Source: Pyrinomonadaceae bacterium
Lineage (GTDB): Bacteria; Acidobacteriota; Blastocatellia; Pyrinomonadales; Pyrinomonadaceae
Assembly: GCA_035697925.1 (NCBI GenBank)
Contig: DASSCG010000354.1
Location: 1 to 24,892, forward strand
Length of the DNA stretch: 24,892 nt
Reading direction: 5' to 3'
The translations under genes and the position numbers were made by a program. Under the pieces are notes generated by a model. It saw nothing but the letters and a program-made list of their open reading frames with translations. It ran no database searches and had not been told where the DNA came from. This document shows, one piece after another, positions 1,146 through 12,648 of the stretch. The stretch's first letter is position 1. Each line of letters begins with the position of its first letter.

Positions 1146-3881
1146 ATGACTGGAAACGAACTTCGAGAGACATTTTTGGCTTACTTCGAGAGGCGCGGGC
1201 ACACACGCGTGCGCTCGTCGCCGTTGTTGCCTGCAAACGATCCGACGCTCTTGTTTACCAACGCCGGCATGAATCAGTTCAAGGACGTCTTTCTAGGCCT
1301 CGAGAAGCGTGAATACGTACGGGCCGTCTCGTCACAAAAATGCGTGCGCGCAGGCGGCAAGCATAACGATCTTGATGAGGTAGGAAAGACTGCACGGCAC
1401 CAAACCTTTTTTGAGATGCTTGGCAATTTCTCGTTTGGCGATTATTTCAAGCGCGACGCGATCGTGTATGCCTGGGATTTCCTTACCGGCAGCGTTGAAG
1501 ATGGCAAGCTGGGCCTGGATCCAGAGCGTCTTTGGTTCACGGTTTTCGGCGGCGATGAGGAAGTATCTGCTGACGAAGACGCGGAAAACTTTTGGGAACA
1601 GGTTGGAGCTCCTCGCGAAAGAATCTTGCGTTTCGACCGTAAGGACAACTTCTGGCAAATGGGCGACACGGGCCCGTGCGGGCCTTGCAGTGAGATTCAT
1701 TACTACATGGGCCGCGATCCCGGAGACGCTGAGAACTGCGCCGCGAGCGTCAACGGCCCAGGCGACACGATCACCGAGATCTGGAATCTGGTCTTCATGC
1801 AGTTTGATCGCAGCGAGATCGAACCTGGGAAATACTCTCTGACACCTCTTCCTGCTCCGTCCGTTGATACGGGGATGGGCCTTGAGCGTCTCGCGGTCGT
1901 CCTGCAAGGCGTTAAGACGAACTACGAAACTGATCTGCTCAAGCCCATTGTTGAGTTCACCGCGGACCTCGCTGGGCGCAAGTACGAAGCTGAAACCCAG
2001 GAAGGTTTTGCAATGCGTGTTATCGCGGATCACGCGCGCTCAACCGCTTTCTTGATTGCCGACGGAATCTTGCCCGGCAATGAAGGCCGCAACTACGTGC
2101 TGCGAAAAATCATGCGGCGCGCTATTTACCAGGGTCGTCACACGCTGACTTTTAAAGATTCGTTCTTTCATAAGGTGACGAACTTCGTGGTGGATCTGAT
2201 GCACGAGCCTTATCCGGAACTAGCGGTACAACGGGAGTTCATCGAGAAGATGGTGAGGCTTGAAGAGGAGCGGTTTGCCGCGACGATGACTGTCGGATTG
2301 CAAAAGCTGGACGACCTTTTCCGGAATACAGCCCAGAATCAATCACCGGCCTATACTGACTTGGCCCGGCTCTACGATACGTTCGGCACCCCACGCGATT
2401 TGATTCGTGTCAGTTTGGAAGAACATGGAGTTGAGCTTGAGGAAGAACAGTTCAACAAATCTTTTGATGCTGCTTTACAAACATTGCAACAGACAGGTGT
2501 GACGGACAAGGTCGAGGGAAAAGCTAAAACGAGCCCGGTTTATGCAGGTATTGTTAGTCGCACTGAGCGGTCGCAATTTAAGGGTTACGAAGCTACCCGC
2601 GTGGACCATGCCAGAGTCGTTAGTGTGATTAAGGATGGCCATGAGGTTCAACAGTTGAAGGAAGGGGATGAGGCCGAGGTAGTTCTTAATCAAACTCCGT
2701 TTTACGCTGAGAGTGGTGGGCAAGTTGGCGATGTCGGAAGACTAAGCAGTCAAGCCGCTAAGGCAGGCAGTCCTGACGTCATTGCGTCAGTTCTCGATAC
2801 TTATTCTCCGTCACAGGGGTTGATTGTTCACAAGGTGAAACTAGAAACAGGGACTCTCACTGTGGGTGATCCTGTTTCGGCAGAAGTCGATGTTGTGAAG
2901 CGTGACGCTACGCGCCGTAACCACACTGCTACTCACCTGATGCACGCCGCTCTCCGTGAAGTCCTGGGGACTCATGTCAAACAATCGGGCTCCGTGGTCG
3001 CGCCGTCTTATCTGCGCTTTGACTTCACTCATTATCAGCCGTTAACGTTGCGTGAAATTGCGGAGATTGAAGACCTGGTCAATTATCACATCCTTCGTAA
3101 CGAGCCAGTGGAAACGAATGAAATGGCTGTTGAGGATGCTATGCGTTCCGGTGCGATGGCGCTATTCGGAGAGAAGTACGGTGAGAAAGTTCGTGTGCTC
3201 TCGATTAAGGGCGCGGAAGACATTTTCTCCAAGGAGCTGTGCGGCGGTACACATGTCCGAGCTACTGGCGACATTGGCCTGTTTAAGATCGTCAGCGACG
3301 AATCTATCGCATCCGGAATTCGTCGTATACGGGCGATCACAGGCGTTGAAGCTTTTGCGCGATTCCGGGAGGCGGAGGCGATCGTTGACAGGATGGCCAG
3401 CGGTTTGCGCACCTCACGAACCGAGCTTCCGGTCCAGGTGGAGCGCTTACAAGAAGAGTTGAAGAAGGCACGACGTGAAGCTGATGACCTGCGCATGAAA
3501 ATCGCCACCGGCGCAGCAGCAGCTCCTTCGAATGGCGACGAGTCGCGCGATGTATCAGGTGTGCGAGTCGTCGCGCGCGAGGCCAGCGGACTCGACGCAG
3601 CAGAGATGCGCCAACTTTCGGACACGCTACTGGCGCGTATTAAGTCAGGGGTGGTTGTGCTGGGCCGTGCAGCAGAGGGTAAGGCTTCTTTGATTGTAAG
3701 GACCTCAGCGGACATCTCAAAGCGTGTCCCTGCGGGACAGGTGATAAAGGAACTTGCACCCATCGTCGGTGGAAAGGGAGGGGGAAAACCTGACATGGCG
3801 GAGGGTGGTGGAAATCAACCGGAGAAACTCGCGGAGGCTCTAGAAACCAGCTATAAAGTTGTTGAGCGCTTGCTCGCATAA
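1146..3881 (+). CDS. alaS: Alanine--tRNA ligase
   Basis: 911 aa. N-terminal DPTLLFTNAGMNQFK, QKCVRAGGKHNDL, HQTFFEMLGNFSFGDYFK and DTGMGLERL; editing domain NHTATHL...ELCGGTHV; C-Ala/DHHA1 end GGKGGGKPDMAEGGG. Confidence 0.99.
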   Translation: MTGNELRETFLAYFERRGHTRVRSSPLLPANDPTLLFTNAGMNQFKDVFLGLEKREYVRAVSSQKCVRAGGKHNDLDEVGKTARHQTFFEMLGNFSFGDYFKRDAIVYAWDFLTGSVEDGKLGLDPERLWFTVFGGDEEVSADEDAENFWEQVGAPRERILRFDRKDNFWQMGDTGPCGPCSEIHYYMGRDPGDAENCAASVNGPGDTITEIWNLVFMQFDRSEIEPGKYSLTPLPAPSVDTGMGLERLAVVLQGVKTNYETDLLKPIVEFTADLAGRKYEAETQEGFAMRVIADHARSTAFLIADGILPGNEGRNYVLRKIMRRAIYQGRHTLTFKDSFFHKVTNFVVDLMHEPYPELAVQREFIEKMVRLEEERFAATMTVGLQKLDDLFRNTAQNQSPAYTDLARLYDTFGTPRDLIRVSLEEHGVELEEEQFNKSFDAALQTLQQTGVTDKVEGKAKTSPVYAGIVSRTERSQFKGYEATRVDHARVVSVIKDGHEVQQLKEGDEAEVVLNQTPFYAESGGQVGDVGRLSSQAAKAGSPDVIASVLDTYSPSQGLIVHKVKLETGTLTVGDPVSAEVDVVKRDATRRNHTATHLMHAALREVLGTHVKQSGSVVAPSYLRFDFTHYQPLTLREIAEIEDLVNYHILRNEPVETNEMAVEDAMRSGAMALFGEKYGEKVRVLSIKGAEDIFSKELCGGTHVRATGDIGLFKIVSDESIASGIRRIRAITGVEAFARFREAEAIVDRMASGLRTSRTELPVQVERLQEELKKARREADDLRMKIATGAAAAPSNGDESRDVSGVRVVAREASGLDAAEMRQLSDTLLARIKSGVVVLGRAAEGKASLIVRTSADISKRVPAGQVIKELAPIVGGKGGGKPDMAEGGGNQPEKLAEALETSYKVVERLLA

Positions 3882-9842: not shown

Positions 9843-10931
9843 TCACTTTATTTCGCGATTCAGCTTAAACTCTGCTCTAACTTCTCCGACAACTTCCCCA
9901 TTACGATTTCTCACTGGGAAAAATGCGTATTTTGAAACCGCCTCAAGTGCTTCATCATTGAGCACGCCAAGCTGATTGAGTGACTCAATGACGACGGTTG
10001 GCCTTGCACGGTGGTCATCTCCGTCCTCAATTTTGAGAGCAAGCCCTAGCCCATTAGGCCATTCTTTACAGGGCAACACGCCTGCTGTGTAAACACCTTC
10101 GGCGCCAACCTTAGATACCAAGCTACCCGCTGTGGCGCGCATCATCTCAGTGTCGAGCCTGTCAGAGTTGCCACCAACGAGTTCGGGGTAGGTGGTCATC
10201 GCTGAAACAATCCTTTTGCAAGCTGCCGCAATTTTCCCGTCAAAAGTTTGAGGAGGCGAAATCAGCCGCGCGTACATCAAAGCCATGGCCTTTACGGTCA
10301 CACCAAAAACCGGCACGCCGCATCCATCTACACCAACTGAGAGGTCCTCCGTAAGAATCTCAGAAAACTGAGAGACGACACGAGCTATTTCCAACTGCAC
10401 GGGATTGCTTGCCTCGTCGTATGTCTCGGTAGGTGCGCCCAGATGTAAAGCTACGGCCAACATGCCAGCATGCTTTCCTGAACAGTTGTTCTGGAGGACA
10501 TTTGGCTGCTGGCCTCGCGCGCGCAATGTTTTCGCCACTTCCGGGCTGAAAGGTTCATGTTTGCCGCATTTCAAAGAATCCGGACCCAATCCAATCTTCC
10601 TTAGCATCGAGGCGGCAACTTCAGTATGAATGGCCTCGCCGCTATGGGATCCACAGGCAAGTGCAATCTCTTCCTCGTTAAATCCAAAATGGTCAGCAGC
10701 CCCTGAGGCAATCAAAGGTATAGCCTGATGTGGTTTAGCCGAAGATCGGAGGAATGTGACTGTTTCAGGGGCTCCCAGGAGGGCAACAATCTTCCCGCCA
10801 GGCTCTACTGCCACAATGTGACCTCTATGCCTGGATTCAGTAATGGCTCCACGCGTGACCTGAACCAGGGGCTCGGGAACCGGAATCTCTTGAGCACTGC
10901 TGGCGGCGCTCTTTAGCTGGGACACCTGCAT
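9843..10931 (-). CDS. L-asparaginase II family (Rhizobium-type, class 3)
   Basis: 362 aa with ESRHRGHIVAV, RSSAKP (Ser-Lys pair), ACGSHSG, NNCSGKHAG, DGCG and SKVGAEG, the conserved catalytic and Zn-site motifs of the Asparaginase_II family. Confidence 0.9.
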   Translation of the reverse strand: MQVSQLKSAASSAQEIPVPEPLVQVTRGAITESRHRGHIVAVEPGGKIVALLGAPETVTFLRSSAKPHQAIPLIASGAADHFGFNEEEIALACGSHSGEAIHTEVAASMLRKIGLGPDSLKCGKHEPFSPEVAKTLRARGQQPNVLQNNCSGKHAGMLAVALHLGAPTETYDEASNPVQLEIARVVSQFSEILTEDLSVGVDGCGVPVFGVTVKAMALMYARLISPPQTFDGKIAAACKRIVSAMTTYPELVGGNSDRLDTEMMRATAGSLVSKVGAEGVYTAGVLPCKEWPNGLGLALKIEDGDDHRARPTVVIESLNQLGVLNDEALEAVSKYAFFPVRNRNGEVVGEVRAEFKLNREIK

Positions 10932-10973
10932 TAGGCTAACCCTCGCGGAATGTGATTTGGAACTGGGACGGCC

Positions 10974-10982
10974 ATCTTAGCA
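10974..10982 (-). promoter_or_regulatory. Putative extended -10 element for the asparaginase unit (TGcTAAGAT)
   Basis: TG-N-TAnnnT on the minus strand, 42 nt upstream of ATG 10931 and just downstream of the 3D-gene terminator. Confidence 0.45.
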
Positions 10983-11016
10983 TAGGCCTCAGCCGCCAGG
11001 ACTTGACGAGAATTAC

Positions 11017-11046
11017 AAAAAAAAGGCGAAGGATTGCTCCCTCGCC
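11017..11046 (-). terminator. Rho-independent terminator of the 3D-domain gene
   Basis: Minus strand GGCGAGGGA-GCAA-TCCTTCGCC followed by 8 T: a 9-bp stem (one G-U), GNRA loop and U-tract. Confidence 0.9.
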
Positions 11047-11069: not shown

Positions 11070-11612
11070 CTAGCCTTGTACTCGCCTCTTTGCTGCGGCG
11101 CGCTTTCCACCGTAGCTTAGGACTGTCAGTTTAACTGTACGGCGACCGAATCTCATGGCCTCGCGCGTACTAGGCGTCCAAATGTCGATTTTGCGACCTT
11201 TGATCGCGCCTCCCGTATCGGCTACGAGATACTCACCGCTCCAAGGCCCTGCCTGAAGGTGAACTCGCGACCCGAGCGGGAGAACCCTCGGATCAGCCGC
11301 AATGATGCCCTGGCTAACCAACTTGCCACTGGCGGTACGGCCTCTGAGGCTGTAAGCGGTGGCAATATACGAGACCGGCGGCTCAACGGCGGTTTGTGCC
11401 GGTAGTGATTCTACGATTTTGCCGGCAGGCGTTTCAGACAGGACCTTTCCCGCTGAGTCGCCTGGAACTTGGGTTTTGGCTGTTGTGGGTTGTTGAAGTG
11501 ATTGTTGTGGTTGAACCGCGGTTTCTGCAACCGATGGCGTAGCCGCAACGAGGAGTAAAGCTGAAAGGAGCGCGGCGGCTGCGATAGCGCTTCCGCCAAA
11601 GAGGGATTTCAT
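11070..11612 (-). CDS. Secreted 3D (Asp-Asp-Asp) domain cell-wall protein
   Basis: 180 aa with a signal peptide and Gln/Pro-rich linker, then ATAYS...TASG...IAADPRVLPLGS...VADTGGAIKGRKIDIW (all three Asp present) and a basic tail. AGGAG RBS at 11623-11627. Confidence 0.93.
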   Translation of the reverse strand: MKSLFGGSAIAAAALLSALLLVAATPSVAETAVQPQQSLQQPTTAKTQVPGDSAGKVLSETPAGKIVESLPAQTAVEPPVSYIATAYSLRGRTASGKLVSQGIIAADPRVLPLGSRVHLQAGPWSGEYLVADTGGAIKGRKIDIWTPSTREAMRFGRRTVKLTVLSYGGKRAAAKRRVQG

Positions 11613-11646
11613 ATAATCGGGTCTCCTACCGAAGTTGATTACCTAC

Positions 11647-11763
11647 CTTTCAGCGCGCCGCGCGAGTCCGTTCTTTCCTATTACTCGACCTTCGGCTCTA
11701 GGAGTCTTACAAGACATGTCAGCCGAAGTTGGGGGCTTGCATCCTTGATGCAGGCGCTGAAAG
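11647..11763 (-). ncRNA. Candidate structured cis-regulatory RNA (riboswitch-like) in the 3D-gene 5' leader
   Basis: 10-bp closing stem plus three internal stems, a possible pseudoknot, and an alternative anti-SD helix (see findings). Read by eye only. Confidence 0.55.
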
Positions 11764-11792
11764 AAACCAGTGAGGCTATAACAAGCAGAATG

Positions 11793-11801
11793 AGGCTAGC
11801 A
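11793..11801 (-). promoter_or_regulatory. Putative extended -10 element for the 3D gene (TGcTAGCCT)
   Basis: TG-N-TAnnnT about 30 nt upstream of the structured leader, which would place the leader inside the transcript. Confidence 0.4.
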
Positions 11802-11963
11802 TACCAGGGTTGGAGCGTCTAGCTGAGGCTTGGCCGGAACAGAAGATTCGATAGCTGGCGGGTGGTAAGTTAAGAAATAGTTGAAGTTAAAAATAGAAAA
11901 AAGTGATCGCCCCGGGGCTCTAAATCGTATCGAAATTTGGGTCCGTGACGAGCCGGGAACGCA

Positions 11964-12024
11964 CTGGAAAGCTGGAAGCCTGGTTCCTGGAAGCCGATCG
12001 CTGGGCTTCCAAAAACGAGGAAGC
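11964..12024. repeat. Short CTGGAA(G) repeat cluster with an 8-bp hairpin downstream of the GATase gene
   Basis: CTGGAAA, CTGGAAGCC and CTGGAAGCC units. Stem TGGAAGCC (11988-11995) / GGCTTCCA (12004-12011). No U-tract in the sense direction of the operon. Confidence 0.45.
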
Positions 12025-12648
12025 TCATAGAGCCAGGAAATTTTCGATTACGCTCTTGCCGGCGGGGAATTCTTCGTTAAAAAGTTCGGGATGAAACTGA
12101 ACTCCAAACAATGGGCGGTTTTTGTGCTGCATCGCCTGGATTTTACAAACTTCGTTAGAGGCAGTGCATTTGAACCCATCCGGAATTTCCTTCACCTCGT
12201 CACAATGCGAGTGCCAGACGGTAATCCTATTCGGCAAGTCCTTGAAAATTCCATTGCCGTTAGTTTCGACCTCGAAATAACCTCGCTCCCTTTTGGCGCC
12301 CTCATAGCCCTTGCCAGGCCCTAAACGCTCCATTAAGTCGATTGGGGCTCCATAAGAGAGAGCAATCTGTTGGTGACCCCCACAAACGCCTAGCATTGGT
12401 TGCGAGGCTTTATGGATAACCTCAAACACTCCAACTAGTGATTCCGAGGAATAATCTGCCCAAGGGTTGCTCTGGCCGCTAAGGATGATATGTGACGGAT
12501 TGAGCCGGCGGACCCTTTCCAGCGAAACCTCGCGGAAAGGTTCGGTTAAGATCTCCGCCTCAGGGCGTAATCGGCCGAGGACCGCCCGTAACTCCCTCGG
12601 GCTCTCGCCGCGGCCATCGATCGTGTTGTCGACTAGATAAATCAGCAT
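12025..12648 (-). CDS. Stand-alone class I glutamine amidotransferase-like protein
   Basis: 207 aa with IILSGQ, nucleophile elbow LGVCGGHQ, VWHSHCDEV and GVQFHPE (Cys-His-Glu triad intact). It resembles the GuaA GAT domain but has no synthase domain. Confidence 0.88.
   Translation of the reverse strand: MLIYLVDNTIDGRGESPRELRAVLGRLRPEAEILTEPFREVSLERVRRLNPSHIILSGQSNPWADYSSESLVGVFEVIHKASQPMLGVCGGHQQIALSYGAPIDLMERLGPGKGYEGAKRERGYFEVETNGNGIFKDLPNRITVWHSHCDEVKEIPDGFKCTASNEVCKIQAMQHKNRPLFGVQFHPELFNEEFPAGKSVIENFLAL

Follow-up and report, generated by a model that had tools for sequence, protein, structure and literature searches.

Genes for cell-wall remodelling enzymes (NlpC/P60, Rpf and 3D-type) are associated with cyclic di-AMP (c-di-AMP) riboswitches, and in some cobalamin riboswitches a stable multi-way-junction aptamer stays folded while making a loop-loop contact with a downstream ribosome-binding-site hairpin. 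Here, these and other described leaders are compared with a structured leader RNA upstream of a gene for a secreted 3D-domain protein, found in a stretch of 24,892 nucleotides from a Pyrinomonadaceae bacterium (GenBank assembly GCA_035697925.1, contig DASSCG010000354.1, positions 1 to 24,892; hereafter the window, whose numbering is used throughout). Most members of the Pyrinomonadaceae (Acidobacteriota subdivision 4), a family abundant in soil, are uncultured, and to our knowledge almost nothing is known of their gene regulation. The element is a conserved, hitherto undescribed structured leader RNA with strong covariation; it accompanies the 3D-domain gene exclusively, and is transcribed with it from a conserved promoter.

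Among described classes, ydaO-class riboswitches are tied to NlpC/P60, Rpf and 3D-type cell-wall genes (PMC9960051). The c-di-AMP ydaO/yuaA class (Rfam accession: RF00379) resembles the element in being a structured, multi-helix 5′ leader of ~120-140 nt upstream of cell-wall remodelling genes, but has a pseudo-twofold architecture, whereas the P1-P4 core of the element is modelled as a four-way junction. RF00379 (38 bits) gave no match at the locus (E <= 10) nor anywhere in the window's own genome. Classical c-di-AMP (ydaO) riboswitches, one to five per genome, were identified in 31/40 family genomes, motif-bearing ones included, at loci other than the 3D-domain gene (e.g. L257, L259 and L261); because genuine members coexist elsewhere in the same genomes, the element is not a local form of this class, a rejection that concerns the class and not c-di-AMP as a ligand. 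Models of the cyclic di-GMP (c-di-GMP) classes I (GEMM-I) and II gave no match up to E = 10, in agreement with a preliminary description of the locus, made from the sequence alone, which had recognised neither a c-di-AMP nor a c-di-GMP core. That description had also suggested that the leader might be undescribed, and this is supported: Rfam 15 (4227 models) returned no match across the whole window at gathering thresholds, two chance-level matches at E <= 10 over 11550-12050 both fell outside the element, homologous loci matched no Rfam family either, and neither full-text literature searches nor two Breaker-lab discovery papers yielded a comparable motif, whether in Acidobacteria or preceding 3D-domain genes. 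A weak ZTP-riboswitch-like match on the plus strand (11935-12013; score 14 bits, cut-off 39 bits; E = 8.2), located in the spacer upstream of the promoter, was judged to be due to chance.

More distant comparisons are also informative. The kissing-loop platform of cobalamin riboswitches offers a possible working analogy for a putative contact between a CUCCU segment of the element and the loop carrying its Shine-Dalgarno (SD) sequence, although the two are homologous in neither sequence nor structure and the element has no Rfam match. The nadA motif (NAD+-I riboswitch), reported to be largely confined to Acidobacteria and to precede one gene exclusively (PMC6859854), provides an earlier example of a riboswitch restricted to a phylum and to a single gene, but is built of tandem bulged hairpins, precedes another gene, has a known ligand and gave no model match here. 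CsrA/RsmA-controlled leaders, like the element, place GGA or AGG in the loops of hairpins, with one such motif overlapping the SD, but their sites are far simpler than a covarying four-way junction, and most genomes with the element do not encode CsrA. P2 of the element (CAAGGAUG) resembles the consensus selected for CsrA by systematic evolution of ligands by exponential enrichment (SELEX).

When the minus strand is read, the helices, 9-mer repeat and TG-N-TAnnnT promoter element of the preliminary description are all present (Table 1). For 11645-11765, the structure of lowest energy computed by RNAfold consists exactly of P1-P4 (-47.1 kcal/mol, z = -3.17), a stability matched by 0/200 dinucleotide shuffles; a longer stretch of 191 nt is not exceptional in folding energy (z = -1.04). 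Covariation was assessed in two alignments, A3 (64 distinct sequences) and A5 (91 distinct sequences), whose figures are biased toward structure by fitting to the covariance model (CM); these compensations, among them paired indels in P1, are already visible in the raw MAFFT alignment. Paired cells make up 95.2% of A3, with compensatory change in 25/29 pairs, and 95.8% of A5, with compensatory change in 19/29; 0/500 shuffles scored as high in either alignment, and slid-partner controls in A3 gave 23-49% pairing. The expectation that P1-P4 would covary in relatives is thus borne out. Compensatory changes occur at 9/9 pairs of P1 in A3 and 8/9 in A5 (93.5% of cells paired), and both-side changes at 4/5 pairs of P2 in A3 (96% paired); all 7/7 modelled pairs of P3 covary in A3 (98.6% paired), and the P4 stem features CG to UA and UA to CG compensations. 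P3 arms pair better with their own partners than with swapped ones (-12.77 versus -10.93 kcal/mol, p < 0.0002); for P1 the difference is small (-16.4 versus -15.1 kcal/mol) because its core is conserved, which makes the comparison uninformative for this stem, judged here by its per-pair counts. A GCGC/GCGC pairing in place of P1, proposed by RNAalifold when 36 sequences of the genus were aligned with plain MAFFT, was rejected, as indels had misaligned the 3′ arm and the CM-guided alignment favours P1.

The unpaired nucleotides are conserved above the stems: the P2 loop CAAGG, whose positions are kept in 87-90/91 sequences; the C-run of J2/3, invariant within the genus and with its CCCC core retained across the family; CUGAC and CUCCUAGAG, which flank the variable inner hairpin of P3; and CGCG after P4. 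Each of C, U, C, C and U of the CUCCU in the P3 internal loop is kept in 89-90/91 distinct sequences. P3a differs in sequence and length between genomes and is absent in L094, and the P4 loop is variable across the family, with AGGA in 55/91 sequences. An unpaired core more conserved than its stems is typical of ligand-binding or tertiary-structured RNAs, which this pattern would suit. Downstream, the P5 stem UCGG...CCGA, with a loop of 6-11 nt containing GGAG, is kept in nearly all family members, and its invariance leaves no possible covariation signal; its arms repeat the inner P3 arms, both being unusually invariant, and this repetition may be meaningful. The P2 loop CAAGG is complementary to CCUNG at 4/5 positions, but these are invariant, a central A.A mismatch is present in 60/91 sequences and the complementarity is lost in a divergent form from genus g69; this candidate pairing is unproven.

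Covariance model R1 located one copy per genome in 75/151 Pyrinomonadaceae genomes, spanning 31/60 genera, and model R2 located the element in 28/29 genomes of the window's genus (g1) and 12/12 of genus g25, with 0/60 genomes of genus g43 carrying it. Across 112 genomes of nine other families of the class, a single marginal match was obtained (E = 0.005). The window's own genome has just one copy of the element; by blastn it is present in 33/36 same-genus genomes at 78-93% identity, with conservation that starts exactly at the P1 5′ arm and extends to the SD, and an exact 24-nt core pattern occurs in at least 119 contigs of the GTDB species set, titled as Pyrinomonadaceae, Blastocatellia or Acidobacteriota metagenome-assembled genomes (MAGs). 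Genomes flagged as unpublished (G032, G092, G223, G237 and G077) are included in the tallies 33/36, 75/151, 28/29, 12/12, 0/60, 1/112 and 31/40, and underlie none of the sequence-level claims. All copies examined have an orthologous secreted 3D-domain gene ~25-50 nt downstream, and ten divergent downstream open reading frames (ORFs) likewise encode 3D-domain proteins. Orthologous 3D-domain genes of motif-less genera (G083, G108 and G062) carry neither the element, even when the CM filters are switched off, nor a leader known to Rfam. The divergent form in genus g69 (G110; L252:2054-2161, minus strand; 34 bits with filters off) has another P2 hairpin, lacking the CAAGG loop, and retains CUGAC, CUCCUUGAG and the SD hairpin.

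The C-terminal domain of the encoded protein matches the 3D domain (Pfam accession: PF06725; E = 9.3e-16), and the protein partially matches NCBIfam models of EntA-D wall-binding and SpsC (stationary-phase survival) proteins. The -35 hexamer is conserved across genera and the extended -10 in nearly all family members in aligned upstream regions, which supports the promoter element proposed in the preliminary description; from these elements, the transcription start site (TSS) is predicted at ~11785-11788. Metatranscriptome contigs from four soil runs in two studies together span 11075-11757, with ends at 11747-11757 on one side and ~11075 on the other, and single RNA contigs bridge leader and coding sequence; the same contig sets have zero coverage of the flanking asparaginase-II and glutamine amidotransferase genes (10850-11040 and 11790-12250). 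This evidence, consisting of assembled contigs rather than reads, which end ~30 nt before the predicted TSS and cover 7/10 nt of the P1 5′ arm, supports a monocistronic mRNA containing the element and hints that, in situ, the 3D-domain gene is expressed at a comparatively high level. As the contigs extend to 11757, the TSS does not lie downstream of 11700, where it would have refuted the preliminary description. Between promoter and P1, most family loci (e.g. L167:1440-1500 and L173:1440-1500) additionally feature a terminator-like hairpin followed by a U-tract, with consensus ACAAGCGGAC...GUUCGCUUGU and covarying stems, which passes a strict test in 75/107 distinct upstream regions. It would form the very 5′ end of the transcript and could act there as a promoter-proximal attenuator or in 5′ stabilisation; it has been lost from the clade of the window (L009, L010 and L094), a remnant GCTTGTT being present at ~11786-11780.

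Table 1. Positions of the leader, promoter and gene features within the window
Feature	Sequence	Position	Strand	Remark
-35-like hexamer	TAGACG	11821-11816	-	17 nt upstream of -10; family consensus (C)TGGACA
Extended -10 (TG-N-TAnnnT)	TGCTAGCCT	11801-11793	-	family consensus TG(T/C)TAGCCT
Four-stem core P1-P4		11765-11644	-	~120 bases
P1 5′ arm	CUUUCAGCGC	11763-11754	-	pairs with 11656-11647
P2 hairpin		11752-11738	-	near-invariant loop CAAGG
J2/3 junction, unpaired C-run	AGCCCCCAA	11737-11729	-	conserved
9-mer, two copies	CAACUUCGG	11731-11723 and 11637-11629	-	
P3 5′ arm	CUUCGGCU	11728-11721	-	followed by conserved GAC, 11720-11718
P3a small hairpin	GUCU-UGUA-AGAC	11715-11704	-	enclosed by P3
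Anti-SD-like segment, P3 internal loop	CUCCUAG	11704-11698	-	complementary to SD AGGAG
P3 3′ arm	AGCCGAAG	11697-11690	-	covariation
P4 hairpin	CGAGU/ACUCG	11687-11663	-	arms 11687-11683 and 11667-11663
P4 purine-rich loop	AAUAGGAAAGAACGG	11682-11668	-	
P1 3′ arm	GCGCUGAAAG	11656-11647	-	pairs with 11763-11754; sequence reading and covariation
Segment covering the SD	CUUCGG-UAGGAG	11634-11623	-	
P5 SD hairpin	UCGG-UAGGAGAC-CCGA	11632-11617	-	GGAG 11626-11623 in loop
Start codon of 3D-domain gene	ATG	11612-11610	-	
3D-domain gene		11612-11070	-	180-aa secreted protein, signal peptide, C-terminal 3D domain
Intrinsic terminator of gene		11048-11023	-	11-bp stem, then T-run

The function tentatively favoured, with a confidence that falls a little short of even, is that of a new, family-restricted orphan riboswitch-type cis-regulator of translation, with a CUCCU-SD contact as its output. 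The stable P1-P4 junction would be the sensor, separated by a variable linker from P5, whose loop would display the SD, and the read-out would lie in the availability of CUCCU, invariant within the internal loop of P3, for pairing with the SD AGGAG on P5; such a contact would be of the loop-loop or pseudoknot type, for which the aptamer need not unfold. Some generic features of riboswitches are observed, namely a covarying fold with a conserved unpaired core, a position in the 5′ untranslated region (UTR) and co-transcription with the gene; the invariant CUCCU and the SD hairpin would also allow a pseudoknot contact, a kind of pairing outside the reach of nested-fold scoring. A more specific form of this reading is possible, if on the unlikely side: a riboswitch class exclusive to Pyrinomonadaceae, in which an envelope-related signal (for example an ion, a second messenger of the nucleotide type or a product of peptidoglycan turnover) would gate translation of the 3D-domain lytic enzyme via a ligand-dependent CUCCU-SD loop contact, with the promoter-proximal terminator as a second control point in most genomes.

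The preliminary description had instead envisaged a two-state switch, whereby the P3 3′ arm and CUCCU would leave P3 to form a 12-bp anti-SD helix with CAACUUCGG-UAGGAG, and a pseudoknot between UCCUA and UAGGA of the P4 loop would mark the ON state. Both pairings exist in the window, and the reuse of the inner P3 arm sequences by the SD hairpin would suit such an exchange; beyond the window, neither pairing holds up as a general feature. The full 5-bp pseudoknot is possible in 34/91 distinct sequences and has no compensation, because the P4 loop varies while CUCCU stays unchanged, and the 12-bp helix, together with the 9-mer duplication, is confined to the window's clade, the flanks offering complementarity of only 2-3 bp in most genomes. 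The expected covariation of the anti-SD helix was not seen: own and swapped partners are equivalent (-10.75 versus -10.89 kcal/mol, p ~0.82), such that the P3 3′ arm and CUCCU flanks do not co-evolve with the SD segment. Nested folds in which CUCC:GGAG is enforced lie a median of 10.2 kcal/mol above the minimum free energy (MFE), and 15.3 in the window, and come within 2 kcal/mol of the MFE in 1/57 homologues; because the anti-SD fold is so much less stable, a two-state equilibrium by strand exchange is unlikely. As a conserved mechanism the two-state switch is largely refuted, and we regard it as very improbable, although it may yet apply within the clade of the window only. An RNA thermometer of the ROSE or fourU type was rejected, as the SD is mostly unpaired in the nested ground state (mean probability 0.68 over 57 homologues), a local SD-pairing hairpin being found only in the window's clade, where the probability of being unpaired is 0.30.

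Several of these observations also weigh against the favoured riboswitch-type regulator: the energetic cost of CUCC:GGAG, the lack of co-evolution between the CUCCU flanks and the SD segment, and the mostly unpaired SD. The universal part of the proposed contact is the CUCC:GGAG core complementarity alone, and both of its sides are invariant, which gives it no covariation support; a scan for tertiary pairs by mutual information with average product correction (MI/APC) yielded nothing beyond P1 and P3 pairs and effects of clade. Even free of ligand, the aptamer is very stable, with a P1 of 9-10 bp and no near-isoenergetic nested alternative, a single gene association does not permit a ligand to be inferred, and a narrow phylogenetic range with one target gene is also typical of protein-binding leaders. 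In a genome of the same genus (G208; L251:1433-1535), a natural deletion has removed P3-P4, with P1, P2, J2/3 and an intact 3D-domain gene kept; because P3-P4 were lost yet the gene retained, the element is dispensable there, and comparisons could make use of this variant as a natural knockout.

Two serious rivals are protein binding and a role that is purely structural or stabilising. In the former, which we consider unlikely, CAAGG of P2, CUCCUAGAG and the SD hairpin would be sites for a family-specific RNA-binding regulator that represses or activates translation of the 3D-domain gene, a proposal well suited to the family-level range, to one copy per genome with one target gene, to covarying stems that carry invariant loop sequences, and to GGA/AGG displayed in hairpin loops, with P2 resembling a CsrA site. 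The obvious candidate, CsrA (Pfam accession: PF02599), was however rejected, being encoded in just 22/151 family genomes and 0/4 searched genomes of the window's genus, and absent from the motif-bearing genera g25, g28, g31, g32, g39 and g47; moreover, the encoded protein is secreted, which makes autoregulation unlikely, and no candidate regulator is linked to the locus. In the latter, which we judge to be slightly less likely still, the leader would be a non-sensing mRNA stabiliser or translation enhancer in the manner of ompA or S-layer leaders, without switching. The representation of the gene in soil metatranscriptomes where its neighbours are missing, the very stable fold with no competing structure and the exposure of the SD in a hairpin loop are all consistent with this role, yet stabilisers need 5′-terminal hairpins rather than a four-way junction with ~40 near-invariant unpaired nt across 31 genera, and a separate 5′ hairpin is already present upstream of P1 in most genomes. 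A mini-ORF of seven codons, MQAPNFG (ATG CAA GCC CCC AAC TTC GGC TGA; 11741-11718, minus strand), is located within P2-J2/3-P3. A leader-peptide attenuator, in which this mini-ORF, with its ATG in the P2 3′ arm and its TGA in CUGAC, would control the structure, has a negligible probability and was rejected: the mini-ORF is found in 58/91 distinct sequences, but its frame, start and length are not conserved beyond close clades, with 10 divergent members lacking the ATG and lengths of 1-35 codons; changes at codon 6 are non-synonymous (S, L or F) and track P3 base-pairing, and no properly spaced SD precedes it.

Whichever function applies, the element is a well-supported, family-wide RNA structure whose target gene is clear; with more than 90 distinct natural variants for design and evidence of expression in soil, it offers a basis for a ligand hunt. 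Were it a true riboswitch, its ligand would reveal an intracellular signal coupled to peptidoglycan remodelling, and the element would add a class beyond the second-messenger riboswitches known for cell-wall hydrolases; were it not, it would be a clean test case for leaders of the protein-binding or structural kind in a little-studied phylum.

Two further observations concern individual loci. Two copies of the leader and 3D-domain gene, on separate contigs and at 78-88% identity, have been identified in MAGs G011, G001, G015, G002 and G259 (e.g. L038-L041), and may reflect either true paralogy or a mixture of strains within a bin. At the locus with the P3-P4 deletion, sub-threshold Acido-Lenti-1 matches just downstream of the 3D-domain gene (L251:2122-2167, minus strand, and 2257-2303, plus strand; 32.9 and 34.4 bits, respectively, against a cut-off of 37) may represent terminator-like palindromes.
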